Source: an uncultured Ardenticatenaceae bacterium
GTDB taxonomy: Bacteria > Chloroflexota > Anaerolineae > Promineifilales > Promineifilaceae
Direction of reading: 5' to 3'
NCBI GenBank assembly: GCA_964429835.1
Contig: CAYSDT010000001.1
Location: 1 to 27,023, forward strand
Length of the DNA: 27,023 nt
Positions 1 to 19,100 of this stretch are shown here, piece after piece (within the stretch, counting starts at the first letter, position 1; the number at the start of each line of letters is the position of its first letter). The notes under the pieces are model-generated. The model saw nothing but the letters and a program-made list of their open reading frames with translations, was not told the DNA's origin and did not search any database. Made by a program: the position numbers and the translations under genes.

Positions 1-3000
1 TCGGCACGTTCTTCTGTTTCGCTGAACAGACGGATATTTTCCAATGCGACGGACACATAATTGGCAACACCCACCAGCAAATCCATGTCAGATTCTTTGT
101 ATGCGTTGTACTGGTCACTTTGGCATGACAAAACGCCCAGTCGCTTTGTGCCTACTTGTAAAGCAACAAATAGCTTTGAAACAGAAGGATGCTGTGAAAT
201 ATCGCCAACCACAACAACTCCTGACTGATCTTGTTGCAATGCCTCTTCTGGTGTCAAATGCTGTAACAAGGGTCGGCCTGTTTGCAAAACCTGATAAGAA
301 GATGTCTCTGGCGTAATTGGTACTGGTAATGGGTGTTCGTGATATTGGCCGCCTTCAAAATTACTCACGATTGTTATCGCATTTAGTTCATCGTCATACA
401 GCCCTGCAAAAAAGGCATCTACGGGCATGATGGCTTGTATCCGCCGATAAACAACTTCAAGCATCTTTTCCATATCTGATTCTTGCGAAACAGCACTGGC
501 AATCTGATTGATTGTCGTCAATCGCTTTGCTTGGGCTTCGGTGGCGAAGAGGGCGCGTTGGGTTTCGTCTGTAAGGCGAAGGTTTTCGATGCGGGCGGTG
601 AGTTGGGCGGTAACGGCCGTTATAATTTCAGTCGTCTCTGCATCCCACTCCTCATCATCGTCATGCGAAAACAGGGCAAGATTACCGATTTTTTCGCCAT
701 AAACAAGCAAAGGATGGTCATATGCCGCCGTTTCCATTTCCTCTATTACATCCGCTCCCGCGCCACTGTCGTACACAAACGACAACTCTTGTGCCTGTGT
801 ATCCACATAAGAATCCCAGCCCTCGCGTGTCAGGCGGCGTGTCAATACATCTAATTCAGCCACAGCCTCTTCCGATTGCTCAAACAAGCGTGCATTTTGA
901 ATAGCAAAGCCGATCTGGCTACCGACAGCAGCCAACCACTCCACATCAGCATCACGTCCAGTCAGCACCTCTGTGCTAAACAGGCAAAGCGTACCTAATA
1001 CATCCCCGTGCGCCTGCATGGGAACACCCTGATACGCCTTATATCCCCGTGCCAATACGCCCGTAACATCAATCGGTGCGTATTCCGCCAAGTTTCCCAA
1101 CACAATCGGTTTATTGTCCTGGTAAACCAGATCGCAAAGCGTTCCATCAAGCCCGCCACTTGCGCCCAGAATTGCGGCCCATTCTTCTGGTAAACGGTAC
1201 GCTTGTAAGTCCAACGAATCAGTTTCCGTATTTACAATGCTAAACAGCCCTGATCCAAACCCAGTCGATGACAGCACTTGTTGCAACACCTCATCCAGCA
1301 CGGTTTCTAAATCTAATGTGCCGCTGGCTGTTTTGGTGATGGCAAGTAACGCCTCTGTTTCTGCCAATGCCCCTTGTGTTTCACGATATTGCTCTGCATT
1401 TTGCAAAGCAACGGCAATCTGCGAAGCCAACGTCGTTTGGATATTACGATCCTCTCTGGAGAAATAGTCAGTCTTGTCTGATTGAATATCCATCACACCC
1501 AACACATAGTCTCCAAGAATGATGGGAATCGCCATTTCCGCTTGTGTTTTAGGCAAATGCGGATTGGTCATATAATCAGGTCGCGTACGCACATCGTTCA
1601 CGGTAACGCCAGATTTCGTTCGTACTGATTCAGCAACGACCGAGTGGGGGTGGTCAAGCGCGATCTGGTGGTGTTCAGCAACCAACACCCTGCCCGCCTC
1701 ACCAGCACCAGCCATCAACACCATTTTGTCACCATCATCATTCATCAAATAAATGTGAGCATGATAATAACCAAAATGATCCTTGATCGTGTCGGATACA
1801 AGCTGCAACAACGGTTTTATTTCCATGATGGCTGAAATCGTGATGCTGATATCGGCTACTGCTTGTAAATTGACTGCATGTGCTTCAATTGCGGCTTCAA
1901 TGCGTTGGCGTTCAGTAATGTCACGGTTGTAAACGACAATGCCCGTCATTTCACCATCGTCACCATAAGTTGCCCGCGCCTTGCGCCATACCTTAACAAG
2001 GGAACCGTCTTTCCTGACGAGATCAGTTTCCACTTCTATATATCCTTCCTTTTTAAGTTTGGGGTACATTTTTTTGAACAGCCCCGCCCCTTCTGCGGTA
2101 AAGAATTTGGTGACATGCTGCCCAATCGCCTCATCCCGTTCGTAACCTAATGCTTGCAAATAAACATCATTACAATCCACCAAAAGGCCTTCTACACTCA
2201 CCAGTTCAATGGCATCGGCAGCGGCATCAAACAGTGTGCGATAACGTTCTTCACTGGCTTTTAGCGTCTCTCTGGCTTGCTTGCGTTCGCTAACATCTCG
2301 TTTTATGGCAACGAAATGGGTGATTTTATCCCCCATCGTCCGCACAGGGGTAATCGTCATCTCGTCTGTATAAAGCGAACCATCCTTGCGTCGGTTAATT
2401 ACTTCTTTTTGCCAAACACGGCCGTCTAAAACGGTATCCCACAGGTCTTTGTAAAAACCAGGCTCATGCTTCCCTGATTTCAAAACACGGGGATTGCCGC
2501 CGACTGCTTCTTCAAATGTATAGCCTGTTAATGTTGTAAATGCCGCATTCACCCATTGGATCGTGCCACCGATATTAGTGATGGCAACCCCTTCTAGTAT
2601 TGATTCCAGTGCGTAATTTTGTAATTGTAACTGCTCTCGTACATGTTTCCGTTCGCTAATATCTTGGGAAGATGCAACTAAACCAATCGGAACGCCATCC
2701 TCACCTTTTAACAAGGCAACAGCCATCCATGTTGGAAAAGTCGTGCCATCTTTATGTTTATGGCCTACTTCACCTTGATTGCTGCCTGTTTCTATAATTT
2801 TTTGATTGAATGGCTCTACTTCATTCTGTAATTGCTCTGGGGTATGGAATATAGTGAGCGGCTGGCCGATCAGTTCATCAACCTGATAGCCGTGCATTTT
2901 AGCCCATGCAGGGTTGATAAATTGGATATTACCTTCTAAGTCGGCAATAGCTGTTCCGTCGAGACTTTGTTCTATGGCGGCCACCAATCTTATCCATTGT

Positions 3001-3470: not shown

Positions 3471-3484
3471 AACGTCTACCCTGA

Positions 3485-6151
3485 TTAGTTTAATTCCACG
3501 ACTGCTTTTTTAATTTTCAATGCACGACCTAACTCGGAAACGGCCGTTTTCATCGCCCCTTGCACCGTTTGCGCCCCTTGAATCTTCTGACTAATTTCGT
3601 TAATCAGCCGTTCACGCTCGGCACGTCTTTCCGTCGCTTCAAATTGGCGTACATTTTGTATGGCAATGCTGATCGATCCAGCCAATGTGACTAACAGACG
3701 TTGATCGTCCTCACCGTACCGTCGATTTTCATGGAAACTTTTAAGGGCAATCACACCAATCACCTCGCCAGCAGCCAACATCGGGACAGCTAAATAAGTG
3801 TCTGGAATACGCATGTCCCCTTCTAACACACCGCCCCGCGCCAAAAATTCTTCCTCTGCGCTCTCGTCATGGGTGCTGTTAAAAATAAGCGGCCGTTTTG
3901 TGCGAATCACTTCGGCCGTAAAACCACCGTTCTTATCAGCCAATCGGGATGGGATATGCTGTATGCCAACATCTGGGTTGTAAAAATAAGGAAAAACCAT
4001 CATTCGGGATGACGGGTTATACAAGGAAAAATAGATGCCTTTAGCCGCAAACGCTTCTTGCAAACGGGGTCCAATGCTCGCAAACAGCGTTGATAAATCA
4101 AGATGCGTAGAAACCATCTCGCTAATCTCATTCAGCAGGAGTAATTCTTCACTACGTTCTTCCGTCTGGCGCAAAGCGTCCTGTGTGGCCGTGAATAAAT
4201 TCAAGTTTTCCAACGCCAATCCAACATGATTAGCAATACCAAACAGCAGTGCAATATCCTCTTCGGTAAAATCGTGGAATTGGTAATTTTGCACCGACAT
4301 CACACCAATCGCCTTCGCCCCCGCCATCAGCGGAACAAAGGCCATGTTAGACGGCCGTTGATTTTCATCATCATCACCGCCAGTCAGCAATAAATTCTGA
4401 TCCTCCGTTTCCCTGTCCCAGAACTCCTCTGGTGTGTAGTTCACATAAATCGGCTTGCCGCTCTGCCAAACTTGTGTCGTCTCTACTTTCGGATCGACTC
4501 CCATAGGAGGAACATCGTGTATCACCTCATCATCATAGAAATAGGGGAAAATAAAATGCTTATGCGTTTCATCATACATCGCAATGAAAAAGGTGTCGGT
4601 GACAACAACACGGGCGACTTGTTCGTGAACGGCCGTAAACAGTTCGCCTTCACCAAGCTGTTGCGAAACGACCTGCGCCACCTCGTTGATGACCGCCAAC
4701 TGCTCGGCTCGCTTATCCAATTCCTGACGACCCAACTCAGTTGTCTCTAACAGCCGCGCCCGTTCCAGCGCGTCCGCTATCTGACGTGATAAGCCGTCCA
4801 GCAGTAGTTGCTCATCCGCCGTTAGTGGCTCGCCCGATGGGTTACGCACGTCCAAATAGCCAATCGTTTCCGATTGCACCGTCAGGGGGATGGAAACAGG
4901 AATATCAGCATCGGGGAAAACGGCCGTTTCTGGCATCGTCGCCGAATTCATATTCACAATGTCGCGTGCAATCGGCTGCACCTGTTCGTTATCGAACATA
5001 TAACCCCGAATCTGCCGCTCATCATCGGCCAAAAATGCTTGCCAATTTTCACGCGCCATCACCTGTTGTAATTTATTTAAGTTTTCTAACGCTTCTTGCC
5101 GTTGTTGATATTGACGCGCATTTTGAAGAGCAACGGCCGTTTGTGCCGCCAACAGCGTAAGGATACGCGCATCCTCCTCATCAAATTGCCCAACATCAGC
5201 CGCATGCATGTCCAAAACACCCAACAATTCATCGCCAACCAACATCGGTATAGCCAATTCACTGCGCGTATCTGGCAATAGTTCGTGCGCCATAAAATGG
5301 GCATCAAGCTGCACATCACTGCTTATAACACTGCGACGTGTTCGCGCCGCTCGTGCAACCAGCGACCGTTCCTGATGCAAAGAAATTGAAAGAACTGCAC
5401 GACTTTCAGCCGCCAACATCTGCTCGGCAGCAGAGCCAGCAACGGCCGTTAATGCCAACTTTTCTTGTACTACATCAAACAAAAAGATATGCGTATGATA
5501 CAAATCAAACCCATCACTTATTGATTCAACAACAGTATCCAACAGTTCACGCAAATCTAAAATAGCGGCTATATCTACACTAACCGTCGCCACCGTTTCC
5601 AACTCAACCGCCCGCTTCAACGCAAGTGCCTGCTCTTTTTCCAGATCAACAGCTAACTGGCGCTCACGTTCCATCCGCTCCTGCAATAAAATTTGCGAGC
5701 TTTTGTAATATAATTCCTGCTCGGTAAGCACCTCATTTAATCGTGCATCTATATAGCTTTGTAAAAACAATTGCCGATAATGATGAAGCGTTGCCTCCGC
5801 CCTTTCCCCCACTCCTTCCAGCATGACAACCGCTCGATCATGCAGCTTATCTATCAAAAGAACAGCGACCATAGGTGACAACCCATCACTCGCCAACGTT
5901 CGCACATGCGCCTGCAATTCTGGTTGAGAAATCTGTCCACTGACATATTGAATAAACACATCAATAATTTGCTGACTGGTCTTGGGAATATGGCGCATTG
6001 ATCCCAACGCGGCCGTATTATCAAAAATATGACGGCGTAATTCGCCTGCCATTAGTTCAATCAGCATATCCGTTTGAGCCGACAACTGTTCTATGCAAAT
6101 TGGTGATAAAACAGTCTCAGGGTTTCTCGATTGGGTCATTAGCGCACTCAT
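3485..6151 (-). CDS. Soluble GAF-domain protein (888 aa): helical N-terminal domain, GAF, Trp half-GAF module, 2 GAF, partial-GAF C-terminal tail
   Basis: GAF signatures TRSELAIPMLVGDELLGVLDMH, AFVPLMAGAKAIGVMSVQNY and YLAVPMLAAGEVIGVIAL, each followed by a Q/H..A.AL.N helix. No hydrophobic TM segment. No kinase, cyclase or phosphatase motif recognised. Confidence 0.92.
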   Translation of the reverse strand: MSALMTQSRNPETVLSPICIEQLSAQTDMLIELMAGELRRHIFDNTAALGSMRHIPKTSQQIIDVFIQYVSGQISQPELQAHVRTLASDGLSPMVAVLLIDKLHDRAVVMLEGVGERAEATLHHYRQLFLQSYIDARLNEVLTEQELYYKSSQILLQERMERERQLAVDLEKEQALALKRAVELETVATVSVDIAAILDLRELLDTVVESISDGFDLYHTHIFLFDVVQEKLALTAVAGSAAEQMLAAESRAVLSISLHQERSLVARAARTRRSVISSDVQLDAHFMAHELLPDTRSELAIPMLVGDELLGVLDMHAADVGQFDEEDARILTLLAAQTAVALQNARQYQQRQEALENLNKLQQVMARENWQAFLADDERQIRGYMFDNEQVQPIARDIVNMNSATMPETAVFPDADIPVSIPLTVQSETIGYLDVRNPSGEPLTADEQLLLDGLSRQIADALERARLLETTELGRQELDKRAEQLAVINEVAQVVSQQLGEGELFTAVHEQVARVVVTDTFFIAMYDETHKHFIFPYFYDDEVIHDVPPMGVDPKVETTQVWQSGKPIYVNYTPEEFWDRETEDQNLLLTGGDDDENQRPSNMAFVPLMAGAKAIGVMSVQNYQFHDFTEEDIALLFGIANHVGLALENLNLFTATQDALRQTEERSEELLLLNEISEMVSTHLDLSTLFASIGPRLQEAFAAKGIYFSLYNPSSRMMVFPYFYNPDVGIQHIPSRLADKNGGFTAEVIRTKRPLIFNSTHDESAEEEFLARGGVLEGDMRIPDTYLAVPMLAAGEVIGVIALKSFHENRRYGEDDQRLLVTLAGSISIAIQNVRQFEATERRAERERLINEISQKIQGAQTVQGAMKTAVSELGRALKIKKAVVELN

Positions 6152-6179
6152 AAGCTCTCTCTTATTTACGATTGTGCAG

Positions 6180-6214
6180 TAGAGTGGTTCAATCTTGAAG
6201 ATTGAACCACTCTA
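6180..6214. repeat. 35-bp near-perfect palindrome, GTAG-type REP-like
   Basis: TAGAGTGGTTCAATCTT-G-AAGATTGAACCACTCTA has 17-bp perfect arms and a 1-nt centre. G6179 makes the 5' end GTAG. Confidence 0.8.
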
Positions 6215-6272
6215 AATCTAAAAAGGGTTATTTCTTGCCGTAGTCACAAGCAAAGGCAATGTGTTTTACTAA

Positions 6273-6367
6273 CTGGAGTCTGGCGAAAATCAAATCTCAG
6301 TCGAGTTGTAGGGGCGGCTCGCGAGCCGCCCCTACTGGAGAGAAATTTCAAAAACGCCAGTGTCCAG
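6273..6367. mobile_element. 95-bp MITE-like element with a central perfect REP palindrome
   Basis: Ends CTGGAGTCTGGCG (6273-6285) and CGCCAGTGTCCAG (6355-6367) are inverted repeats matching 11/13. Flanked by the direct repeat TTACTAA (6266-6272 and 6368-6374). The core is the perfect 28-bp palindrome GTAGGGGCGGCTCGCGAGCCGCCCCTAC (6308-6335). Confidence 0.65.
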
Positions 6368-6396
6368 TTACTAACCATTGACCAGTATCAAAAGAA

Positions 6397-7188
6397 TTAT
6401 TTCTTTTCTAAAATAGCGGCATAAAATTCTAGTTCTACACCTTCGTGATCTTCTTCGGTAAACATATCGCCGATACCTAGCCACTCAGCAATAGGTTTAT
6501 AGCCATTCTCATCAACAACCCACGGCCCCATAATCTCCTTCGCCTGATCGAGCGTGATAAATTCAAAGTGCGCCCCCATCTGATCGAACATAGCCAGGAA
6601 TTGATCCATCTTGGGCGTTGTCATCTCTGGGTTTTTGCTTTCAAACGTGACGAAAATTCTGCTACCAGGTGCAGCCCAATCATACAGGTCTTGCATCAAC
6701 TTTATGTTTTCTTCCATAGAGAAGAACGATGTTACCGCGTTAACGACAAAGGCAATTTTACGATCATCACCAAAAAGTTCTTTTACAACGGGGGAAGACA
6801 AGATTGCTTCTACATTACGCGCATCTTCCTGAATGTAACGGGCATTGGGGTTGCCATCCAATAGTTCTGTGCCAAATGTCACCGTAACGGGATCATTATC
6901 CACATAAATCACTTTAGAATTAGGCACTAAAGAGTGAAGGTGGTCGGCGGTGGGCAATCCAGAACCGAGATCGATAAATTTATTGAATCCCAGTGCTTCC
7001 ATCTGATGTGCGCCTTCACGAATAAATTGGCGCAAAATATGCACCCATTTTTTCGTAGATGGGACAAGGCTGAACATATATTCAGCAGCTTGGCGGTCTG
7101 CTTCATAATTATGGTGTCCCCCTAATGTATAATCGTATATTCGACTCGCATTAGGAAATTCACTCTGTGCATTTTGTTGATCGGTCAT
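6397..7188 (-). CDS. SAM-dependent methyltransferase, Methyltransf_19 (DUF574)-like, 263 aa
   Basis: Family-typical N-terminus PNASRIYDYTLGGHHNYEADRQAAE, SAM-binding motif FIDLGSGLPT and YVDNDP. Start placed at ATG 7188 (MTDQQ) because AAGGAG lies 9 nt upstream; the ORF track starts it at 7215. Confidence 0.88.
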   Translation of the reverse strand: MTDQQNAQSEFPNASRIYDYTLGGHHNYEADRQAAEYMFSLVPSTKKWVHILRQFIREGAHQMEALGFNKFIDLGSGLPTADHLHSLVPNSKVIYVDNDPVTVTFGTELLDGNPNARYIQEDARNVEAILSSPVVKELFGDDRKIAFVVNAVTSFFSMEENIKLMQDLYDWAAPGSRIFVTFESKNPEMTTPKMDQFLAMFDQMGAHFEFITLDQAKEIMGPWVVDENGYKPIAEWLGIGDMFTEEDHEGVELEFYAAILEKK

Positions 7189-7329
7189 ACTGATGTACTC
7201 CTTTACATGACTCATGGGCTGGCTTCTGTTTCACCATTTAGTGAATGCCAACTAGTTTTGATTTTGGACTGTTTTATAAAACCATGACAAGCGTATTATC
7301 TGGATAATAAAATAGTCCTTTCTAATTCT

Positions 7330-7501
7330 GTTAGTGTCATTAGTTATTCGCCACCTTTTGTACTCGGCAAATAAATTCGCTGCTACGATTGCAAAGTCGG
7401 TCTACACCGACTGAGAGCCAGACCGCGTAGGCGGTCTTCGCAATGAGTAGGCGCGGTTTTAACCGCCAGCCAACAAGTGGCTAATAATTCATGACACTAA
7501 C
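7330..7501. mobile_element. 172-bp MITE-like element with 25-bp TIRs, 7-bp target duplication and three internal hairpins
   Basis: Left TIR GTTAGTGTCATTAGTTATTCGCCAC versus right-end reverse complement GTTAGTGTCATGAATTATTAGCCAC (22/25). Direct repeat TAATTCT at 7323-7329 and 7502-7508. Internal hairpins AGTCGG-TCTACA-CCGACT, GACCGC-GTAG-GCGGTC and GCGGTT-TT-AACCGC. Confidence 0.75.
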
Positions 7502-10500
7502 TAATTCTCCGACTGTCCATTTTCTACTGACGCAAGCGCATCAGCTTCATCGGGTTCAGTCAAATAAACATAAGTTTGCCATCCCAATGCGCGTCCAATT
7601 TCTTGGGCGGCAATACGCAGGATGGATTCGGGGTCAACGGCCGTGTTGACCTGACTGCTAATTTCGCGCATGGTTTGCTCACGACGGGCGCGTTGCTGTG
7701 TGGCCTCAAACTGACGCACGTTCTGCACCGCTACACCAACTGTCCCCGCCAACGTGCCTAACAAGCGTTGATCATCTTCATTATAGATGCGTTGTCCCTC
7801 GCCATGATTCGAGCCGATGCCAATCGCACCTACAAGATCATCACCGACAATCATTGGTACACCCAAGAAAGAGTTAAGCGAAGTGGCGCGGTCGTCACCT
7901 AAACGGCCGCCTTGCGCGGTGTATTCGTCGGCAGACCTGCCTTCGCTGTTAAAAATGAACGGCTTGCGCGTCAAAATGACCCGCTCTGTAAAGCCGCCAT
8001 CCGCATCGGCGTGACGTGAGGGGACATCAAGATCGCCTTCCTCATCACTGTGGTAATAGGGGAAATCAATCCGCTCATCGGCTGGATCATACAGGGCAAA
8101 AAAGATGCTGGTGGCAGCTAATGCGCTCTGAATACGCTGCCCAGCAGTGCTAAACAGTGAATCCAAATCCAGTTGAGCAGATACAATTTCGCTGATTTCG
8201 TTGAGCAATGCCAATTCGGAGGCGCGTAAATCAAGGTTTTGCCGCCCTAGTTCGGTCACTTCCAACAATCGCGCCCGTTCCAGTGCCTCAGCGACTTGGC
8301 GTGCGGCTGATTCCAGCAATAGTTGCTGGTCGTCGCTCAGTGGCTCGCCAGATGGGTTGCGTGCGCTCAAGCCGCCGATGGTGATGCCTTGTACAGTTAA
8401 TGGGGAAACGGCCGTTTTTCCCTCCGCAAACACCTCATCATCACCCTGTTCAACCGCCTGTACCGTATGCTGATCGTACAGATACCCTTGCACAGTTCGG
8501 CTCTGATTGGTCATAAACGCTTCCCAGTTCTTGCGGGAGACAATCTGTTGTAATTGGGTTAAATCAGCCAACGCCTCTTGCGCTTCCTGATATTGCGCCA
8601 CATTTCGCAATGCGGCCGCGATCTGCGAAGCCAGCGTTAGCTGTACATTGATGTCAATGTCAGAGAAGTGGTTCAACTCATCGGAATGTAAGTTAATCAC
8701 ACCCAGTAATTCGCGGCCAAGAATCAGCGGTACGGCCAAAATGGCGCGGGTATCTGGCAAATCAGGCATGGCTATATAGCTTGGTTCAAGCTGCACGTCG
8801 TTGGCAAATAGGGCTTTGCGCTGATGGGCGGCGTGCGAAATAATGCAGGTTTGCTCATCTACAGATATGGTGGGCATATCGTCTGTGGAAGGATGGTTTT
8901 GGGGGTCAGAAACGGCCGTTAATCGCAACATCCGCGTCTGTTCATGCAGCATGAAAATCTGCACATGGTAAAGAGTAAATTTTTCCCGCATCGCGTCAGC
9001 CACAAATTGCAACATTTCATCACGGTTCATCAGACCAGCCGCCGAACGGCTGATTTCTGTCACCAGTTGCAGTTCACGCGCCTGTTTGGCAAACGTATTT
9101 GCCGTGCGCTTGCTCACGATAACATTTGCCAACGTATTGGCAAACAGCGACGTCAATTCTGGCTCATACACACGCATCGGCTTTTGGGAGAATAAATTAT
9201 CAACAGCCAGCCAGCCGATGGGCTGCTCGCCATCCAATAATACGGCCGCAATTTGCCAACCATGCCCGACAATGTCCCCTTCGTGACGCAGATCTAACGC
9301 AGGGCTTACCTGCCGCCCCTGCCGAATTTTCACGATGGATGCCGCCCATGAATCGGTAAATGGAATTTGGAAATGGTGGGCATCATACACGTTCCCATCT
9401 TGCCCCATTCCAAATGTTCCCATCATCAAATCGCGATCTTCGTCAATCAGCCACAATCGTATGCGATCAAACTGTAATTTTTCACGTCCAACGGCAACAG
9501 CCTGTTCATACATCAGTTCTAATGTATCCAAACCGCTCAAATCGGTGCTGATTTCATGGAGAAGTGTTAATTTAGCCTGAAAATCGCGGGCAGATTGTTC
9601 GCTGTTTCTCAGCGCCGTTGCCGCCGCATTACGCTCGGTGATGTCGCGCATGGTAATGCTGAATCCAGCCACATTGCCGTCAGCATCATAGTTAATGCCG
9701 ACCGTCTCTTCCACTGGTGTCAATGTTCCGCCCCGCACTTGCAACATCGCTTCTGTAGACCAACTGCCTTGCTCGATGGCAATCGGCAAGCCAACCTGCA
9801 TCAGTTTGGCCGCCTCTTCTGGCGCGTACAAGCTGCTGCTATTTATGCCAGAAATATCGTGGTCGGCTGGCAGTCCCATCATCTGTAGGCCAGATGGATT
9901 GATGTATAAGGCGTTGCCATCCAATGTGCCTACGCCAATAAAATCAGGGTGGTTTTCAACAATACCAGCCAACAATCGCGCTTGCTCGGCCAGTCGTTGG
10001 CTTTCAATGGTGACAGCTAACAAGCTGGAAATCTGAAGGATAAAGCCGACATCAATGGAACGGAAAGCATCTTTCTGTGTACTGCCGATATTAAGAACGC
10101 CAAAGGCGGTCACGCCCATAGAAAGCGGGGCGGTTATGACACTTTTGATATTGTTACTCTCCCATCGTCCGCTGTCGGCAAAGTCGGATAACGGCCGTTC
10201 ATCGGGCAAGCGTATCATTCTATTTTCAGTAACGGCCGTTCCAGCCACCGTTGCCGTCACTGGCAAAGATTTCCCAACAGCCACTGTCTCAGTCATCCCG
10301 CTCGTTGATACAACCTCAAGTTCTGTTCCCAAATCAGACAGAAGCAGAATCGCAACACGATCCGCCTTCATAAGTTCCATCACATGCGTTCCCGCAATGC
10401 GATACACATCTTCCAAGTTATTGGCGACCGTCAAAGATGCGCTTAACTCGTTTAATAACGAAAGATTGCGTGATTGCTGCTCACTGGCGGCCAATGTGTC

Positions 10501-12768
10501 GGCTAACACGACCTGTTGTTGTTCCACACGCTCAAATGTGCGTGCATTTTGAAGTGCGAGTGCGGTCTGGGTGGCGATAGCTTGCAACAACCCAACCGTT
10601 TCATCATCAAACACATTAACAACATTATGTTGAATATCTAAAATACCCAACACCTGCTCACCAATGGCGATGGGAACGGCAATTTCACCTTTCGTATCAG
10701 GCAAATCGGCGTTATACAGCCAGACGTCATCTTGCGTCACATCGTTAATCGAAATCGTCTCGTTATCAAGAGCCGCACGACCAACAATCCCTTGTCCCAT
10801 TGGCAATTGATGACCAGCAGCCAACATCCGTTGCCCAACCTCGCCGCTGCCGCCACGCAATTCAAGGTATTCGCCATCATTATCAAGCAAAAACAGTTGG
10901 GCGTGATAGTAGCCAAAGGCATCAGACATTTGACGAACAACTTCTTCAACCAACTCTTCTACAGAGACGATGGTGGAGAGGGTGCGGCTGACTTCGGAAC
11001 TGGTCGTCAATGCTTGTGTACGACTGGTGACGCGATCTTCCAATGAACTGATAAAGTCGCGCAGTTGATCGGTCATACTGTTGAAAGCAATAGCCAGTGT
11101 GCCAATTTCGTCTTTGGTTTCAACAACGGCGTGTCGTTCAACGTCACCTTCTGCGATGGCAACGGCCGTTTCTGTCAAATGGTTAATCGGTCTTGTAATC
11201 CAACCCGCCGCATACGCCGCCACACCACTGCCAACCACAACGGCGATGATGCCCAACACCACACTGGCACGTTCCAACACCTCAACCGCTGCAAACGCCT
11301 CCACATACTCCTGCTGCACGGTAACCGCCCAATTCAGATCATCTATGGCTGGTAATTCACCATCTGTCTGCATCTCCGCCAAGACCAATATGCGCTGTAC
11401 ATCATTGACCTCAGCAATAAGTAATTCACCTGGATTTGCGCGTAACTGTTCTAAATCCATTCCAACTGCTGTTGGTCGCAAAACATGGCGATTAAACCCC
11501 TCATTAAAGGTGGCTATTCGATCATCAAAAATGAAAATCACCCGCCCTGTATCGCCCAAATCATGCATCAATGCCAACAATGATTCTAGTGCAAATGATG
11601 TATACAGCACGCCAACAACACTATTTGTATCGGCCGTGTAAATGGGCAAGGCGATGGGAATAACCATCGCCTCAAGCTCGCGGTCATATTCTGGCTGCCC
11701 AATATAAATATCACCGGAGCCGTCGTTGTACGCCGCTTGCCACCATTCCGTATCTGCATATGCGTATTGGTCGGGTATGTACGTTGTCCCAGCCAACGCT
11801 CCATATTTATCTGTCACCATCACGCCTAAATAATCAGGAAATAAGTATTGAAATGTAGCCAATGTACGCGAGGATGCGTTACGCAAGATGGGTGCTACCA
11901 AAGTAGGATCTGATTCCCATCGTGATTCAATATCATTGATAACAGCCAGCGCATCAGCTTCATCCCCATATTCCACATTTTGGTTGCGTATCAAGCCGCG
12001 CAAGGTGCTGTCTAACCCTAATGTTTCCAACACACGCACCTGCTGTATCAACAGTTGGCTGGCTGTCGCCGCGTCTGATTGACCAAGAAGGGTCAACTGT
12101 TCCCCTAATCGGTAGGTTAATGATTGACGAACGATGCTATTGCTAATCACTGTTGTCAACATAACAACGAGTGTAATCAACATAACAGATGCTGAAATCA
12201 GCTTGCCTTGCAGCGTGAAGTTAGGGAATTGGATGACAGCCATCACAAGAGCAAACGTCATCGTGAGAAGCGCACCAAGATAAACGATAGTCGTATCGGT
12301 CGTGCCAAGCACATTGCGCGTAAACGGCCAGTACAGATCGGCAAGGATGATGAGGATACCTGTAATCGTAATCAGAGCGATGCCCCTCGCCATCTTCCCG
12401 GCTGGCAATATCTGACTGGAAATAATAGCAAGTATGGCGATAAAGCTAACGGTGAGCGGCAGTCCAACAGAGGCGTATATGGATACCAAGTATAAATCGA
12501 GGGCGTAAATAGTAACGGCCGTTATTGCCATCGCCACAACGGTCTTCCCTTTTTTAGCAAGATAGGCAGCACCAAACATCACAACCCCGACAGCCACGCC
12601 CGCAACGGCTTCAATAAACCGTTCATCGTTTAATAGTGCCATCGCTAAAATCAGTAAGGACGCGCCCCCGGTTATGGCCGCAAGAACAAGTAGAATGATA
12701 AACGCACGTCGATTACGTTTATCCTGCACGTCTACTTCTTGTGTTGGCTGTTGTTCAATTATTGTCAT
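7501..12768 (-). CDS. Membrane sensor-like protein (1755 aa): ~6 TM, dCache-like extracytoplasmic domain, TM, HAMP, GAF, GAF, PAS, GAF, GAF, Trp half-GAF module, GAF, partial-GAF tail
   Basis: Hydrophobic N-terminal ~210 aa. Cache-like segment VMVTDKYG...DTEWWQAAY...IYIGQPEYD...IALPI. HAMP ITRPINHLTETAVAIAEGD...DEIGTLAIAFNSMT. PAS ending ITMRDITER. Repeated GAF closing helices. No catalytic output motif. Confidence 0.93.
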   Translation of the reverse strand: MTIIEQQPTQEVDVQDKRNRRAFIILLVLAAITGGASLLILAMALLNDERFIEAVAGVAVGVVMFGAAYLAKKGKTVVAMAITAVTIYALDLYLVSIYASVGLPLTVSFIAILAIISSQILPAGKMARGIALITITGILIILADLYWPFTRNVLGTTDTTIVYLGALLTMTFALVMAVIQFPNFTLQGKLISASVMLITLVVMLTTVISNSIVRQSLTYRLGEQLTLLGQSDAATASQLLIQQVRVLETLGLDSTLRGLIRNQNVEYGDEADALAVINDIESRWESDPTLVAPILRNASSRTLATFQYLFPDYLGVMVTDKYGALAGTTYIPDQYAYADTEWWQAAYNDGSGDIYIGQPEYDRELEAMVIPIALPIYTADTNSVVGVLYTSFALESLLALMHDLGDTGRVIFIFDDRIATFNEGFNRHVLRPTAVGMDLEQLRANPGELLIAEVNDVQRILVLAEMQTDGELPAIDDLNWAVTVQQEYVEAFAAVEVLERASVVLGIIAVVVGSGVAAYAAGWITRPINHLTETAVAIAEGDVERHAVVETKDEIGTLAIAFNSMTDQLRDFISSLEDRVTSRTQALTTSSEVSRTLSTIVSVEELVEEVVRQMSDAFGYYHAQLFLLDNDGEYLELRGGSGEVGQRMLAAGHQLPMGQGIVGRAALDNETISINDVTQDDVWLYNADLPDTKGEIAVPIAIGEQVLGILDIQHNVVNVFDDETVGLLQAIATQTALALQNARTFERVEQQQVVLADTLAASEQQSRNLSLLNELSASLTVANNLEDVYRIAGTHVMELMKADRVAILLLSDLGTELEVVSTSGMTETVAVGKSLPVTATVAGTAVTENRMIRLPDERPLSDFADSGRWESNNIKSVITAPLSMGVTAFGVLNIGSTQKDAFRSIDVGFILQISSLLAVTIESQRLAEQARLLAGIVENHPDFIGVGTLDGNALYINPSGLQMMGLPADHDISGINSSSLYAPEEAAKLMQVGLPIAIEQGSWSTEAMLQVRGGTLTPVEETVGINYDADGNVAGFSITMRDITERNAAATALRNSEQSARDFQAKLTLLHEISTDLSGLDTLELMYEQAVAVGREKLQFDRIRLWLIDEDRDLMMGTFGMGQDGNVYDAHHFQIPFTDSWAASIVKIRQGRQVSPALDLRHEGDIVGHGWQIAAVLLDGEQPIGWLAVDNLFSQKPMRVYEPELTSLFANTLANVIVSKRTANTFAKQARELQLVTEISRSAAGLMNRDEMLQFVADAMREKFTLYHVQIFMLHEQTRMLRLTAVSDPQNHPSTDDMPTISVDEQTCIISHAAHQRKALFANDVQLEPSYIAMPDLPDTRAILAVPLILGRELLGVINLHSDELNHFSDIDINVQLTLASQIAAALRNVAQYQEAQEALADLTQLQQIVSRKNWEAFMTNQSRTVQGYLYDQHTVQAVEQGDDEVFAEGKTAVSPLTVQGITIGGLSARNPSGEPLSDDQQLLLESAARQVAEALERARLLEVTELGRQNLDLRASELALLNEISEIVSAQLDLDSLFSTAGQRIQSALAATSIFFALYDPADERIDFPYYHSDEEGDLDVPSRHADADGGFTERVILTRKPFIFNSEGRSADEYTAQGGRLGDDRATSLNSFLGVPMIVGDDLVGAIGIGSNHGEGQRIYNEDDQRLLGTLAGTVGVAVQNVRQFEATQQRARREQTMREISSQVNTAVDPESILRIAAQEIGRALGWQTYVYLTEPDEADALASVENGQSEN

Positions 12769-12774
12769 AATCTG

Positions 12775-15700
12775 TTACCCAACGTCTTTAGCATCTACGC
12801 TGCTATCCATACTCACGGTATCATCTAAATAGGCAAATATCTCTAATCCCATCGCCTGACCAACTTCTTTAACGGCCGTTTTCAATACAGATTCTGCATC
12901 AACGGCCGTGTTCACACGGTTCGTAATCTGGCGCAATGTTTGCTCACGCCCCGCCCGCTTCTGCGTTTCATCCAGCAAATTGCGATTTTCAATGGCAACA
13001 GTCGCCTGTATACCAAATGCGGTAAGCAAATCTACCTCTGCCTGCGAAAAATCAGGTTGATCAAGTTGATTGATAGCCGTCAATGTTCCCAAAATTTTAT
13101 CTTGATAAATTAGCGGCACAACGATAAGCGAGCCAACATCATGTCCCAAGCGATATTCGTGTGCCATTGCGCTTTCGCGCTCATCACGCATAAATTTAGG
13201 TGCAAAAGCGGTCTTGCGCTCGCGCAATGTCCAGCCGCTCAACCCGTTCCATATATCGCTAAAGCTAACATCCAGATCAACCTTTTCGCGCCCCACACCG
13301 CCAGCGACAGTATGCTCCACGACCTCTTCATCTACATCACAAAGCAATAAAAGCAATTGATTGGCATTGATAGACTCTGCCGCACCATCGGCAATTATGC
13401 GTAATAGCTCCGTATTGGTTTCAATGGTTGGCAATACGCGGCCAATGTTGTACAGCGTTTCGGTATGGTGACGGGCTTGCTCAATTTCCTCAAAGAAGCG
13501 GGCGCGTTCCAACGCCTCTCCAACTTGTGTGGAGATGGAGTCCAGCAACTCCTGGTCAGCCTTTGACAGACTGCCCGCATCGGCTCGTATAGCAATTTTG
13601 CCAATTTGTGTGCCGCGCACGCTCATGGGCATGATGATGTGGTCGCTGTTGTCGATTTGTAAACGGCCGTTTTCCGTCATTACCTGCACCCCATCGGCCG
13701 TTGCCACATACCCATCCTGCTTGGCAAGCGTGCGCCATCCTTCCTGCGCCGCCGCCCGTTGCAGCGCATTCACCTCATCAAGCGCGATCTGTGTTCGCTC
13801 GTACTGTTGCGCGTTTTGCAACGCAATCCCAATTTGCGTCGCCAATGTGGTGTAAACAATCACCTTCTCTTCAGAAAACGCATATGGCATTACCGACTGC
13901 ACATCCAACACACCTAACAATATGTCACCACTCTGCATCGGGATGGCTAACTCGGCTGCCACGTCGGGCAGTAAAGGATGGGAAACAAAATTAAGTTCTG
14001 TTCTAACATCGTTTAGCACGACAGGTTGACGTTGCAATGCGGCACGGGCAACCAATGAATAGGGATTATTGATATGCAAAGCGTGTTGATTGGCAACCAA
14101 TTGCGCCCCAACTTCACCAGCACCCACCGTTGAAAGCAGTTCCTGATTCAATTCATCCAAAATAAGGATGTGTACATGGTAAAGGTTGAATTTCTCTTTG
14201 ATTAAATCAACCGTTGTCTGCATTAAAGAAAGGGGGTCGCGCATGGCAGAAACGACAGATCCCACTTCTGTCACTATTTGTAGATCCTCATTGTTCGCCT
14301 GTGTTTGCGCCAGCAAAAACTGTGTTTGCAAATAAGCAGTAATACGCTGCCCCACACCACCGATTAACATGCTGTCTTCATTTTCAAACTCGTAAATCGG
14401 ATCATATGCCACCGTAATATGACCAATATGGCGGCTCTGCACACGCATTTCCTCAATAATATGGCGTGGATTTTGCCCCGCATCAGCATCGCCATACAAC
14501 TGCCCATCCCACGAAATAGAAGCGGTACAACCCTCTGCATGGCTCATCGCTGTCGGGATTTCTGTCGCTGCCCACTCTAAAAATTCAGGGACAGGGCTGT
14601 TTTCTTCAATCTTGCGCCCAATACCATTAAACAGGTCAAGTTCTGCCAACCGTTCCTCCAGCATAATTTCAACTGCTTTAATTTCACTGATGTCCGTCGA
14701 AATACCAGCGACCGCATACGCCTCCCCTTGCTCATCAAGCAGTGGAAATTTAACAGAAATGTATGTGTGCATTCCATCTTCATGGGGAATATCTTCTTCG
14801 GAAGTGATGGTTTCCCGTTGCGCCAACACGGCAAGATCATTCTGACGTACAACATCGGCAATATCGGCTGAAAAAATATCGTGATCAGTTTTACCACTGA
14901 CTTCGTCGTTACTGACATTAAACAACTCTTCATACCGTCTGTTGACAAGCATGTATTTGCCGTCCGCGTGTTTGATGTAGATAACGGCCGTTGCATTGTT
15001 AATCACACCACCAAACAACGCCTCGCTAGATCGCAACGCCTCTTCCGCCAACTGTTGACGTGTAAACAAGAGTGCGTTTTCAATAGCGGCGGCTATCTGA
15101 CTGCCTATCGTCTCAAAGACAAGTACGGCTTCCTCATCAAACCCGCCTGCTTTGGCGTGATGCAACACCAATGTACCTAATACGCGAGTGCCTACCAGCA
15201 AGGGGACGACAATCTCTGATTGCGTGTCGGGCAATAATGGATGGGCGCGATAGGTGGGAGAAACGGCCGTTTCCATATCCAGCATCGCCCGTCGCCCCAG
15301 CACCGCCAACCCATTACTGGATGTCGATCTCACTGGCAATTGATGCGACCGCGCCAGCAGACGTTCACCGACTTCCCCAGTCGCCGCTTTCAGAATCAAT
15401 CTATCACCATGCAACGTAGAATCCAATAGATAAATTTGAACATGATACAGCCAATACCGCTCCTGAATCATATCAACAGCGTGCCGCATCAACGGTTCAA
15501 CATCACGCATCTGGGTGATAGTGCTGCCAATATCGGCGATATTAAGCAAATCATCAGCACGTCTGCGTGCCTGCCCATCCAATTCTGCTGACAGCGCAAT
15601 CGACTGTTGCGACTGCTCCTCTGCTAATTGACGTGCCTCTGTCAAGCTATGCACAATGACATATTGCAAAGCGGTAATGATGGCAAGAATAATCGTCCAA

Positions 15701-16191
15701 CTTACCGCATACGCATACGGAATCATCTCCCGTGAAACGAGCAATCCTGTTGCTTCTAAATAAGCAAAGCCCCACGCGGCGATGACACTCATTCCCGTGA
15801 TTACAAAGGTGACACGCCAACCCAGCAACATTGCCGTAATCAGGATAATAATGACATAAGCGGCGATGCCTAAATTTCGTGCGCCGCCAGTCAGCAACCC
15901 CAGCATCGTCAATATCCCCCATACCTCAACAACAAAAACAAGACTAATAGCGCGGACATACCCCTTTCGCATGATAAAAATCAAGCTGGCATTCAACGGG
16001 ACAGACGCAAGCAATAGCAACATCGGTGCGGATGTGAGGGAACGAATGCCAGCCAATACCTGCCCAGCAACAAGGGCAAACGAGCCTATCATAACGGCAA
16101 TCAGAAAGCCGTTTAAGAACGCAGCCGTGCGCGTCTTTTCAATATCATCAAAAACAGGGGGTGCCAATAGTCGTTTGATTTTTTCAAGCAT
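12775..16191 (-). CDS. Membrane sensor-like protein (1138 aa): ~5-6 TM, GAF, PAS, small GAF-like segment, GAF, Trp half-GAF module, GAF, partial-GAF tail
   Basis: TM-rich first ~180 aa. GAF motifs LYHVQIYLLD...TQSEIVVPLLVG and LYHVHILILD...ELAIPMQSGDILLGVLDVQS. PAS YMLVNRRYEELF...GKTDHDIF...VKFPL...ISTDISE. Start overlaps the upstream stop (TGATG at 16189-16193). Confidence 0.93.
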   Translation of the reverse strand: MLEKIKRLLAPPVFDDIEKTRTAAFLNGFLIAVMIGSFALVAGQVLAGIRSLTSAPMLLLLASVPLNASLIFIMRKGYVRAISLVFVVEVWGILTMLGLLTGGARNLGIAAYVIIILITAMLLGWRVTFVITGMSVIAAWGFAYLEATGLLVSREMIPYAYAVSWTIILAIITALQYVIVHSLTEARQLAEEQSQQSIALSAELDGQARRRADDLLNIADIGSTITQMRDVEPLMRHAVDMIQERYWLYHVQIYLLDSTLHGDRLILKAATGEVGERLLARSHQLPVRSTSSNGLAVLGRRAMLDMETAVSPTYRAHPLLPDTQSEIVVPLLVGTRVLGTLVLHHAKAGGFDEEAVLVFETIGSQIAAAIENALLFTRQQLAEEALRSSEALFGGVINNATAVIYIKHADGKYMLVNRRYEELFNVSNDEVSGKTDHDIFSADIADVVRQNDLAVLAQRETITSEEDIPHEDGMHTYISVKFPLLDEQGEAYAVAGISTDISEIKAVEIMLEERLAELDLFNGIGRKIEENSPVPEFLEWAATEIPTAMSHAEGCTASISWDGQLYGDADAGQNPRHIIEEMRVQSRHIGHITVAYDPIYEFENEDSMLIGGVGQRITAYLQTQFLLAQTQANNEDLQIVTEVGSVVSAMRDPLSLMQTTVDLIKEKFNLYHVHILILDELNQELLSTVGAGEVGAQLVANQHALHINNPYSLVARAALQRQPVVLNDVRTELNFVSHPLLPDVAAELAIPMQSGDILLGVLDVQSVMPYAFSEEKVIVYTTLATQIGIALQNAQQYERTQIALDEVNALQRAAAQEGWRTLAKQDGYVATADGVQVMTENGRLQIDNSDHIIMPMSVRGTQIGKIAIRADAGSLSKADQELLDSISTQVGEALERARFFEEIEQARHHTETLYNIGRVLPTIETNTELLRIIADGAAESINANQLLLLLCDVDEEVVEHTVAGGVGREKVDLDVSFSDIWNGLSGWTLRERKTAFAPKFMRDERESAMAHEYRLGHDVGSLIVVPLIYQDKILGTLTAINQLDQPDFSQAEVDLLTAFGIQATVAIENRNLLDETQKRAGREQTLRQITNRVNTAVDAESVLKTAVKEVGQAMGLEIFAYLDDTVSMDSSVDAKDVG

Positions 16192-19100
16192 CAGCTTTGC
16201 CCTCCATTTGAGGTGGATGCAGTCTCGGCTGTATTTTCCAGATAAGCGTACACATCTACCCCCAACAGTCGGTTAATTTCGCGGGCGGCCGTTTGCAACA
16301 CAGTTTCAGCGTCAACGGCGGTATGCACACGCTCAGAAACTTCGCGTAATAGCCGTTCCTGACGAGCGCGGGCGCGGGTCTGTTCAAACAGTCGCGCACT
16401 TTCCAAAGCGACGGCCACATAGTTAGCAATGCTAACCAACAACGAGAGATCGGTTTCATCATATTCGTCATAGTTATAACTTTGGATAGAAAGCGTACCT
16501 GTCACTTCCTGCCCTGTATGCAATGGTGCATACATCACCGATACGGTCTCTCTATTATCATTTGTGCCAATAAACAACTCACCCCGCTTGCGATCTTCCA
16601 CCACTTCTTCTGCTGTAAGATTATTCAGAATCGGCTCGCCATTTTGCAAAACACGATAGCTATAACTGTCTGGATGAAGCGGCAGCGGCTCCTGATGGGT
16701 GCGTACATCCTGTTCATAAATGAGGGGATACTCCATCAACTCCGTCTCTGCGTTGTAAAGCATGATGTGGAATGTGCCAACATCCATCAACAGCTTCATT
16801 TCCGTGTAAATGGCTTGCAGTAATGGTTCAACATCTACTTGCTGGGAAGCGATTTGGGCAACACGATTTACCGTTGCCATCTCTTCACTGCGCCGTTTGG
16901 CTTCGGCAAGAGCTTCTTCAGTTTGTTCAAAAAGGCGTGCATTTTGCACTGTCGTGGCTGCCTGAGCAATGATGGTCTCTGCTAATCGTAACTGATCTTC
17001 TGTAAATTGTGTGTTGGCGGTCTTAATGTCCAAACCAACTGTACCAATCAGTTCCCCACCAATAATCATTGGGAAAACGGCAACCGCTTGAATGTTCTCT
17101 TTACGGAAAATGCCATGTGTAACGGCCGTTAATGGACTACTCTGCGCGTCAGCCACAAACGCATATTGGCGCGTATCCAATACACGTTGAGTCAACAAAT
17201 TCCCCTCAATGGGGATGACTAAGCCTTCCAAATCCGCACCCGCTGGATAGGACGCGGTGATGATGAGATTTTCACGCGCTTCATCAAGCAATGTGATGCT
17301 GGACTGGGCGATATTCAGCACAGAAACAAGCTCTTCGGCCACAATGCGAAGGCTTTCTTGCAAATCTAATGTTTTTGAAATTTTAGCGACAATTTCGTTA
17401 AGCTGTTCCATCTCGTGGCCGCGTCGCTGTGCCATAGACAGCGCGTTTTCTGTCTGGTTTTCTAATCGCAACGCTTCGATATGGCTGCTCAACTGGGCGG
17501 CAACTTGCTCTAGCAAAACGGCCGTTCCCCCATCAATCCCATTCTCCGCTTCCACCGAAAGGGAGCCAATTTTCTGCCCGCCAATGACGAGCGACTGAGA
17601 AACGGCCGTTTTCAACGATTCCAAACTATCCGCTTCTTCTACGTTCTCTTCTATAAACGGCGTAACTTCATTGCCATCATACTGATACCCATGCGCCAAC
17701 GCCTGCTCACTTTGCTGTTGATATGAATCCCAGCCTTCGCGGGTCATGCGGCGCAATGCGCGTTCCGCTTCGTTGCGGTAACGGTCTGTTTCATCCAATA
17801 AGCGCAAATTTTCAATGCGCTGTCCTACCTGTTGCGCTACCAAATCAAGCAATTCCTGTTCGCCATCTGTCCACACCCGATCTTGCAGACCAACGATTTG
17901 CAGGCTGCCGACCTCTTCTTTATTGACTAAAACGGCCGTTTCCATCCCATTTTCCCCAGCCGCCAACGTCGTCAACTCCTCATCCAGTAATTTCGTTTCA
18001 ATTTGATCGTAACGATAAGCAATATGCTCGCGTCGATCAACCGCATCAAGATACGCATCCCAATTTTCATGCGTCAACAGACGTGATTGCGCTTCAATTG
18101 AAGATTGCACCTCTTCTCTTTCACCAAACAGTTCTGCATTTTGCCAAGCGATGGCTAATTGCGAAGCCAACACATCAAAGGTGATGAGGTCACTCTTTGT
18201 CAAAATACCAACTTGATCGGCCTGCATGTTCAGCGTGCCAATTAACTGCCCGCCAACCATTAACGGCACTACCATTTCAGAGCGTGTGTATGGCAATAGC
18301 TCATTGGAACGGAACATCAGATCATCACGCACATCTTCAACAACAACGGCCGTTTGTTCCGCCGCCGCCACACCATTGATCGAGCCTTTACCGACAGGCA
18401 AATAGTGGGCGCGCCGCATCAACTCTTCACCAACAAGACCCGTACCAGCCTGAATACGCAATGTCTTCCCCAAAGCGTCCACACGATAAATTTGTGTGTA
18501 ATACAGATGGAACCGCTCGCCGATAAGATTAACGGCCGTGTCCAATAATTCACGCCGATCTGTAATCTGCGTCAAGCGACTGCCAATTTCGGCCGCCAAC
18601 TCCAACCCATGCGTGCGCTGGCTCACCTGCAACTCCAACGAACCAACCAACGTCCGCAATCGCGCCGCCATCTCATTAAAAGCCTGCGCCAACGCCCCAA
18701 TCTCATCTTCTGACTCAACATCTAATGTCACATCCAAATTACCAGCAGCAATTTCTTCAGCCGATGTTGTCAACAAAATAATAGGATTGGCAATTGTTTG
18801 ACTAAAAAAAATGGCAAGACTGGGGATAAGCAATAAAGCAATCGCCAAGATCGCCAAGCCGGGGGCTAACGCAGCGTTAACAGGAGCTAAAACGGCCGTG
18901 TTTGATATAGAATTTGCCAAATACCAACGCGGACTTGTCTCGCTGGGAATCATCACTGGCTGGTACGTCAATAAATCAAGATCGGTTTTCAAAGAACCCG
19001 TTTTACCCGCCAACAACAGATCTCTCAATCCAGGAAAATCATCAACGATAGTGATTTCCATTTCTAAATCCCGTCCCCATCGTTTATCTTCATCAGGGTG

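Follow-up and report, generated by a model that had tools for sequence, protein, structure and literature searches.

Sensor genes and repeated elements of the window

The stretch of DNA analysed here (27,023 nt of contig CAYSDT010000001.1 of an uncultured Ardenticatenaceae bacterium of the phylum Chloroflexota), referred to below as the window, was subjected to gene calling and domain annotation over its whole length. Its large genes are all located on the (-) strand, among them the sensor genes gH, gG, gF, gE, gD, gB and gA. The products of these genes carry one or both of two small elements, which are the subject of this report: an internal module marked by a conserved tryptophan (Trp module) and a conserved C-terminal tail of ~45 amino acids (aa). 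The features are as follows, in the order of the genes along the (-) strand (TM, transmembrane segment; the classes Q, R, 12 and 3 are defined further below):

22838..24631, (-): gH, 597 aa, dCache-HAMP-GAF-tail, without Trp module and output domain; heads the putative chain
22841..23053, (-): gH tail, aa 527-597, class Q, with an added C-terminal extension
20451..22841, (-): gG, 796 aa, TM-dCache-HAMP-GAF-tail, without Trp module and output domain
20454..20600, (-): gG tail, aa 748-796, class Q
16191..20324, (-): gF, 1377 aa, dCache-HAMP-GAF-Trp x2-GAF-GAF-tail
17784..18086, (-): gF Trp module 1, aa ~747-847, motif at aa 752, class 12, type-1-like
17448..17756, (-): gF Trp module 2, aa ~857-959, motif at aa 862, class 12, type-2-like (RMTREGW)
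16194..16370, (-): gF tail, aa 1319-1377, class R
12775..16191, (-): gE, 1138 aa, TM-GAF-PAS-(W-less mini module)-GAF-Trp-GAF-tail
13480..13764, (-): gE Trp module, aa ~810-904, motif at aa 816, class 3 (..ALERARFFE)
12778..12957, (-): gE tail, aa 1079-1138, class R
7501..12768, (-): gD, 1755 aa, TM-PDC-HAMP-GAFs-PAS-GAFs-Trp-GAF-tail
8251..8553, (-): gD Trp module, aa ~1406-1506, motif at aa 1412, class 3
7504..7692, (-): gD tail, aa 1693-1755, class R (R 83.5 vs Q 40.4 bits)
3485..6151, (-): gB, 888 aa, soluble, N-terminal helical region-GAF-Trp-GAF-GAF-tail
4736..5068, (-): gB Trp module, aa ~362-472, motif at aa 367, class 3
3488..3625, (-): gB tail, aa 843-888, class Q
3..~3470, (-): gA, >1150 aa, PAS x3-GAF-GAF-Trp-GAF..., cut by the end of the window and contig; last in the putative chain
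558..845, (-): gA Trp module, aa ~889-984 of the open frame, motif at aa 895, class 12, type-2-like (RRLTREGW ... IENLRL)

A search of the window with the motif [RQHK][EK][GN]W gave exactly six occurrences in five proteins (gA, gB, gD and gE, and two in gF), thereby recovering the intervals at which the preliminary description of this DNA had placed six module copies. In each copy GY.YD (in a degenerate form in gA and gE), PL.V.G..IG.L and a helix of the form ..LL..VA.Q...ALE.ARL come after the motif, and the six modules can be aligned across ~100 residues. The tail is present on six proteins (gB, gD, gE, gF, gG and gH), and gG and gH, which bear it without any Trp module, fit the earlier remark that the two shortest receptors have a tail only.

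Domain annotation with Pfam and NCBIfam assigned 1-4 full GAFs to each sensor protein of the window and detected no kinase, cyclase, phosphodiesterase or DNA-binding domain in gB, gD, gE, gF, gG and gH. The combination of HisKA/DHp and HATPase_c that characterizes a sensor histidine kinase was found in none of the complete window proteins; gA is cut. No model of either collection spans the tail or the Trp helix.

A second small module, which lacks the tryptophan, was observed in gE at aa ~520-625 (window ~14320-14630, (-) strand). It reads 'LDLFNGIGRKIEEN.P.PEFLEWAA..' followed by strands and a helix, and its end is weakly GAF-like. The same W-less module occurs in the related proteins P0163, P0184 and P0172, and in several distant relatives it directly precedes the tail.

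Relationship of the two elements to the GAF domain

When compared with Pfam, the modules matched only profile positions ~56/70 to 129/136, i.e. the C-terminal 45-55% of the GAF profiles. The modules of gB (29.6 bits) and gD (27.2 bits) exceeded the GAF_3 gathering cut-off of 27, the other four being below it or without a match, and the Trp module does not reach the gathering score across most of the GAF, GAF_2 or GAF_3 profile, as membership of these families would demand. No Pfam match was obtained for the six window tails.

Profile-profile comparison (hhalign) with an alignment of 18 full GAFs from the window placed the tail on GAF columns 1-38 (alpha1 and beta1; probability 91%, E 1e-6), which makes it homologous to the N-terminal alpha1-beta1 segment of this domain, and the C-terminal half of the module on columns 98-159 (last two strands and alpha5; probability 96.7%, E 4e-10). 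The N-terminal half of the module, including the invariant Trp helix, had no counterpart among the GAF columns. Both placements bear out the preliminary description, which had recognized the opening elements of a GAF in the tail and its closing strands and helix in the module; for the tail, the AlphaFold2 models presented below likewise give a helix-kink-helix followed by an extended end.

The tail profile was also used to search 1.84 billion representative sequences, and 9,238 matches were obtained at E <= 1e-3, some of which are the N-termini of full GAFs. The internal matches are of two kinds, the first being the N-terminal segments of regular full GAFs, located in giant kinases with many GAFs, and the second contiguous small domains without a Trp helix, in which a tail-like segment is followed by a short linker, the GY.YD hairpin, the PL.V/IG.L strands and alpha5. 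Such domains were found in the relatives P0166, P0200, P0177, P0178, P0197, P0161 and others, and an alignment of 13 of them could be matched over its entire length with that of the canonical GAFs (probability 99.3%, E 3e-19).

In these contiguous relatives the tail strand comes before the GY.YD strand, therefore GY.YD corresponds to beta2 and not to beta1. The assignment of GY.YD as beta1, with the module as a fully complete mini-GAF, which fits the AlphaFold2 models, was rejected because of this strand order. As GAFs composed of a tail and a W-less module in one piece exist in the relatives, the module does lack alpha1b and beta1. On these alignments, the Trp module is a small GAF minus alpha1b and beta1, in which alpha1a has been swapped for the Trp helix. 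The earlier proposal that the module is devoid of both opening helices and the first strand thus holds for alpha1b and beta1, but not for its N-terminus, where the module keeps a helix of its own. The tail and the Trp module together cover one complete small GAF, and their sole overlap is between the W helix of the module and alpha1a of the tail.

The giant multi-GAF kinases (2,000-2,500 aa; P0156, P0158, P0159, P0164 and P0165) contain 8-11 internal tail-profile matches each and apparently belong to low-GC organisms. Here the match is the plain N-terminus of every full GAF ('RE.LLR.I.E.IRSSLDI.E.L..I..EV..LF.V.R..I.EF').

Related loci and gene order

In total, 116 related loci were collected, 37 with the tail profile (one genome per species) and 79 with the Trp-module profile (metagenomes). 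Of the tail-scan loci, 36 of 37 belong to metagenome-assembled genomes (MAGs) of Anaerolineales/Chloroflexota. A profile search for the combination of Trp module, GAF and tail retrieved 112 proteins, one of which is named Candidatus Villigracilis affinis; a genome scan with a two-sequence alignment of the Trp module gave no confirmed match. The only tail/Trp locus from a bin labelled Bacteroidota, L020 (JBLMZU010000169.1), is a 6-kb contig, and this label is probably a binning error rather than a sign of horizontal transfer.

The profiles identified 226 tail-bearing open reading frames (ORFs) and ~323 Trp modules in the 116 loci. Among the first 92 modules, the tryptophan is conserved in 98%, the glycine of IG in 99%, and the R and L of '..NLRL/..ARL' (alpha5) in 99% and 98%, respectively. 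With so many copies and such strong residue conservation, the Trp-module pattern is not due to chance. In the tails, whose median distance from the C-terminus is 11 residues, the final strand has a conserved V (67%) and L (90%), spaced two residues apart.

The distribution of the two elements among proteins follows a clear division. The 156 C-terminally complete Trp-module ORFs comprise 72 that end in a tail, 81 histidine kinases, none with both and 3 fragments, and the 226 tail ORFs are all devoid of a kinase domain. The ten Trp proteins without a tail that were checked by Pfam all have the architecture (sensor)-Trp x2/3-(PAS)-(GAF)-HisKA-HATPase_c. Among tail proteins with both ends complete, 129 of 187 are without any Trp module; 21 of the first 83 tail proteins also bear one, and in some families only 2-10 residues separate the module from the tail.

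The gene order is equally regular: one or two tail-only sensors are followed by optional intermediates with Trp module and tail, and a Trp kinase comes last. The patterns of 43 complete clusters (t, tail; nW, n Trp modules; K, kinase) were as follows:

t t 2WK: 23 clusters (and 1 more in which the kinase ORF extends beyond the end of the locus)
t t 2Wt 3WK: 8 clusters
t 2WK: 6 clusters
t t 2Wt 1WK: 3 clusters
other patterns: 2 clusters

In the same code the window reads 't t 2Wt 1Wt 1Wt 1Wt 1W>'. Since this grammar is the same whether the loci were picked by the tail or by the Trp module, the co-occurrence runs both ways.

The kinases designated 3WK (L017:7828-9690, L031:5685-8147, L048:9146-11557 and others) have as their first module a shorter one without the tryptophan ('..VMVYEKEEVGYAYHD..'), and a type-1/type-2 tandem comes after it. 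In the clusters with such a kinase, the modules exceed the tails by two.

Correspondence of tail and module classes

Tails of class Q ('..I.QKIQ..TTVE.ALQVA.RE.G..') and class R ('REQ.LRQIT..V..S.DP..I.RTA.RE.G..') were assigned by two seed hidden Markov models; two-cluster average linkage merely split off one outlier. Modules were assigned to class 12 ('RRLTREGW ... HIENLRL' together with its tandem partner type) or class 3 ('RLYRAMSREGW ... ALESARLF'). The test sample consisted of 65 proteins that have both a module and a tail and for which the next gene product is also a Trp protein, with the following results:

Tail class vs module class of the NEXT protein: R-3 23, R-12 0, Q-3 1, Q-12 41 (Fisher p 1e-16)
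Tail class vs module class of the SAME protein: R-3 5, R-12 18, Q-3 10, Q-12 32 (Fisher p 1.0, odds ratio 0.89)

The class of the tail thus follows the module of the next protein, the lone exception having an ambiguous tail, and is independent of the module on the same chain, with which all four combinations are found. When mapped on trees of the proteins' own modules, the tail class has changed at least 8 + 5 + 4 = 17 times. The own module lies ~0.5 kb from the tail and the next module often 2-4 kb away, therefore linkage cannot explain the matching. Across the 116 loci, the tail and the module both co-occur and co-vary in class, which is what a complementing pair should do.

All 6/6 junctions of the window obey the same rule: the Q tails of gH and gG precede the two class-12 modules of gF, the R tails of gF, gE and gD precede the class-3 modules of gE, gD and gB, respectively, and the Q tail of gB precedes the class-12 module of gA. 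Proteins in which a tail and a module are fused also conform, either by joining an R tail to a W-containing class-3 module (P0172, P0179 and P0215) or a Q tail to a type-1/2 tandem (P0182) or a class-12 module (P0177). In the divergent fusions P0157, P0178 and P0184 a Q-scored tail stands beside a class-3-like module; the fusions thus mostly follow the rule.

The differences that define the classes are located in the tail helices and, in the module, in the W helix and alpha5, i.e. in elements that would pack side by side in a GAF.

Structure predictions

Two monomer models were calculated with AlphaFold2, and contacts were inferred from DSSP strand assignment and the predicted local distance difference test (pLDDT). 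The first model is of the complete protein P0140 (571 aa, TM-coil-GAF-Trp-tail), where the tail comes directly after the module (28-row alignment, mean pLDDT 80). In this model alpha5 of the GAF, the linker and the W helix are fused into a single long helix (366-417), the module consists of strands 423-426 and 429-432, helix 440-448 and strands 452-454, 460-467 and 470-478, and helix 487-531 runs unbroken from alpha5 of the module into the first tail helix, the second being 536-551. The terminal 'EVVVQL' is unpaired, and pLDDT drops there from 76 to 53.

The second model covers aa 792-1138 of gE (Trp module, GAF and tail; 48-row alignment, mean pLDDT 78). In model numbering, the module comprises helix 2-33, strands 36-40, 43-47, 60-67 and 70-78, and helix 86-131, the pLDDT of its first half being only ~50-55; an ordinary GAF comes next. 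The tail starts with helix 259-303, continuous with alpha5 of the preceding GAF, and goes on with helix 308-323. Coil makes up the last 24 residues, the terminal strand being unpaired and pLDDT falling from 70 to 37.

The fold predicted for the module is therefore a helix, two strands, a loop or short helix, (one +) two strands and a helix, at a pLDDT of ~50-85. Docking of the tail in cis was predicted in neither monomer, and the conserved V.L strand of the tail, left unpaired in both models, suggests an intermolecular partner.

When the P0140 model was compared with the Protein Data Bank using Foldseek, it matched tandem-GAF and GAF-PHY rods across 350-450 columns (E ~1e-8 to 1e-9).

In the helix joining alpha5 of the module to the tail, a clean indel of 7 residues (one heptad; alignment columns ~730-740) distinguishes P0113-P0138 from P0119/P0128/P0135. 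Its length fits a continuous, register-sensitive signalling coiled coil.

Proposed wiring and alternative explanations

Based on these comparisons, we somewhat favour the view that the tail and the Trp module are complementary parts of a small GAF located on different proteins, serving as type-matched connectors that would link the tail of one protein to the module of the next. The tail would contribute alpha1a, alpha1b and beta1, and the Trp module its replacement N-terminal helix with the invariant tryptophan and the elements from beta2 to alpha5. The tail of protein i would engage the module of the downstream-encoded protein i+1 and not that of its own chain. In the window, the Q tails of both gH and gG would engage the class-12 pair of gF, and the wiring would continue through gF (R) to gE (3), gE (R) to gD (3), gD (R) to gB (3) and gB (Q) to gA (12). 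In the related loci, such a chain or tree of sensors would end in a histidine kinase, behind which a PALP-REC response regulator is often encoded, so that many output-less receptors could funnel their signals via continuous coiled-coil helices into one kinase.

The putative directional docking in trans has strong comparative support; the physical contact itself, the closing of the sheet by the strand of the tail and the direction in which the signal would travel are inferred. The preliminary description had allowed for docking in cis as well as in trans, with the receptors assembling into chains; synteny, the lack of overlap between tails and kinases and the matching with the next module speak for the trans part of this proposal, while the AlphaFold2 models and the independence from the own-module class speak against the cis part.

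As a broader and more tentative suggestion, Anaerolineales might build programmable, directional chains or trees of receptors linked in the cytoplasm, in which the tail of every output-less sensor would be the N-terminal third of a small GAF donated to the next, incomplete GAF. At least two orthogonal codes (Q-12 and R-3) may be in use, and the resulting hetero-oligomer might carry several signals along a composite coiled-coil/GAF rod into a single kinase.

Several observations weigh against the proposed complementation. In the AlphaFold2 monomers the Trp module is predicted to close as a 4- or 5-stranded mini-GAF without the tail and with no evident vacant slot, which does not support the earlier assumption that the tail is needed to complete its fold. 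Although tails and modules in the window number 6:6, their numbers are equal in 27/43 and unequal in 16/43 (37%) of the complete clusters ('t t 2Wt 3WK' has 3 tails vs 5 modules, and 't 2WK' has 1 vs 2); a 1:1 tail:module stoichiometry, indicated at first sight by ratios of 2:2, 3:3 and 6:6, was rejected for this reason. The closed module and the unbalanced clusters weigh against a simple obligatory 1:1 complementation. The class test involves two tail and two module classes, in stop-to-stop ORFs from phylogenetically related MAG and metagenome contigs, and in principle the matching could depend on some other property of the next protein that varies together with its module class. Finally, the C-terminus of gA is missing, so the end of the window chain is out of sight.

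It is possible, albeit unlikely in our opinion, that both parts are autonomous, the module being a complete mini-GAF that acts as a spacer or dimerisation unit within the signalling helix and the tail a truncated GAF start that merely caps the C-terminus and closes a dimeric coiled coil. The class matching would then reflect shared operon ancestry, and the output-less sensors would signal by some other route. Such autonomy would agree with the AlphaFold2 fold of the module alone (4-5 strands and two flanking helices), with the tail as a helix-kink-helix continuous with the preceding alpha5, with the 7-residue indel expected of a coiled coil, with the pairing of GAF and Trp module with tandem-GAF and GAF-PHY rods by Foldseek, and with the unequal tail and module numbers. 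It is weakened by the matching of the tail with the next and not with the closer own module, maintained through at least 17 independent switches, which it leaves unexplained, as it does the absence of tails on kinases, the unpaired conserved V.L strand, and the existence of contiguous tail-module domains and of class-obeying fusions.

We consider it improbable that the tail docks on another partner, e.g. the DHp/CA core of the kinase, the '..RL..LFSE' peptide, the ParA/MinD-like ATPase or PALP-REC, with the module class as a correlated marker. Conserved extra genes do exist in the clusters, and the kinases have a conserved N-terminal motif with a disordered linker (see below), and the class test cannot distinguish between the module and anything else that the next protein has inherited along with it. 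However, the next proteins differ in architecture (TM sensors, soluble PAS-GAF proteins, short and long kinases) and have the Trp module as their one common element, the ParA-like gene is missing from the window and from many loci, and the fusions link tails directly to Trp-type modules.

Complementation in cis, in which each tail would fold back and complete a GAF with the Trp module on the same chain or on the other chain of a homodimer, is highly improbable. Some tail proteins do bear a module as well, at times only 2-10 residues away, and gE, gD and their relatives combine an R tail with an own class-3 module. However, no such docking was predicted in P0140 or gE, the tail class is independent of the own-module class, a module is absent from most of the tail proteins whose two ends are complete, and the continuous helix from alpha5 keeps the tail off its own module.

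Other genes of the window and of the related loci

Two further genes of the window were annotated:

25227-26675, (-): gI, gatB-like, outside the sensor system
6397..7215, (-): gC, Methyltransf_19 S-adenosylmethionine-dependent methyltransferase, between gD and gB

The gC methyltransferase was rejected as a member of the system, because no homologue of it occurs in any of the 116 related loci; it is therefore probably a lineage-specific insertion interrupting the sensor chain.

The public contig stops at the window edge, inside gA, and the C-terminus of this protein lies beyond the available sequence. Its best collinear match is the 1505-aa kinase of L065 (gA 261-1164 = 342-1258), and the C-terminal part of gA also aligns with the 1211-aa tail protein of L049. 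The protein may end in a histidine kinase or be a further tail protein.

Additional genes accompany the sensors in the related loci. A fusion of PALP (a pyridoxal phosphate-dependent enzyme) with a C-terminal receiver directly follows the Trp kinase in L024:17091-18743, L025:11769-13445 and L027:13882-15573; this PALP-REC protein is an unusual, enzyme-type response regulator and likely the output of the system. Genes for solute-binding proteins (NMT1/Phosphonate-bd) are interspersed among the tail-only sensors (L024:10243-11250, L026:6716-7720, L038:10173-11207), and a ParA/MinD-like ATPase (AAA_31) is encoded directly upstream of the kinase in some loci (L003:12087-12911, L005:10630-11430, L009:10169-10987). 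Neither the solute-binding-protein genes nor the ATPase gene are present in the window.

Soluble Trp-module kinases and other signalling proteins of Anaerolineales open with a conserved amphipathic N-terminal peptide, '..(K)RL..LFSE/D', which is separated from the first domain by a linker of 40-60 residues that is rich in Pro, Glu and Ala and probably disordered. The peptide was found in L006:11078-13171, L008:4226-6295, L009:10887-13496, L017:7828-9690 and L031:5685-8147, as well as in P0003, P0171, P0183, P0187, P0189 and P0193. It looks like a tethered docking peptide.

Comparison with known systems

The closest structural likeness of the modelled protein, according to Foldseek, is to tandem GAFs placed on a long connecting helix (PDE2A, 1mc0; PDE5A, 3lfv; CyaB2, 1ykd) and to the GAF-PHY rod of phytochromes (e.g. 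8avw). The common features are an alpha5 that runs unbroken into the first helix of the next unit and the heptad-length indel. In those rods, however, every GAF is complete and the units are on one chain, whereas here the module is miniaturised, without alpha1b and beta1, and the polypeptide ends with alpha1a-alpha1b-beta1 of a further unit, the rest of which never follows in cis. Similarly, the two ends of the canonical GAF (PF01590 GAF, PF13185 GAF_2, PF13492 GAF_3) have homologues in the tail and in the C-terminal half of the module, but neither the tail nor the Trp module alone is a full member of these families.

A conceptual parallel is offered by donor-strand complementation in chaperone-usher pili, where a fold that is short of a strand is completed by a strand of the next subunit, giving ordered and directional chains in which the pairing is specific. 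The likeness consists in the directional, class-specific matching along the gene order. There is no sequence or fold kinship, the putative donated element is two helices and a strand, the setting is cytoplasmic signalling and not fibre assembly, and the complementation is here proposed from sequence.

Accessory or co-sensor proteins that regulate histidine kinases in trans are also known, e.g. periplasmic binding protein-kinase pairs and transporter-kinase co-sensing. The output-less sensors described here resemble them in being encoded beside their presumed target kinase, with solute-binding genes interspersed in the related clusters. Known co-sensors act by periplasmic or membrane contacts or are small inhibitor proteins, and they are not known to use a repeated, type-coded cytoplasmic connector that can be chained via intermediates with Trp module and tail. 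Kinases of the NarX/NarQ type reportedly contain a small GAF-like domain between HAMP/S-helix and DHp, which is likewise a reduced GAF-like unit within a signalling helix upstream of the kinase core, but we know of no tail-bearing partners and no Trp motif described for it.

Full-text literature searches revealed no description of a split GAF or of Anaerolineae GAF signalling of this sort. The components themselves (GAF, HAMP, kinase) are ordinary; what appears not to have been known before, as far as we are aware, is the arrangement of output-less sensors with a GAF fragment class-matched to the incomplete GAF of the next protein.

In Chloroflexota, 'GAF domain-containing proteins' form large families that have sensor domains without an output. 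Matched as well as mismatched combinations of tails and modules can be drawn from this one window, so that short constructs would suffice for a direct test of the proposed wiring. If the proposed wiring is true, the Q/12 and R/3 pairs would constitute natural orthogonal, genetically encoded protein connectors, and signals would be integrated in two-component systems by domain complementation between chains, a wiring principle that would be new if the docking is demonstrated. The output-less GAF proteins would then be the inputs of multi-protein sensor kinases, and the gene order together with the connector class would let their wiring be read from the sequence.

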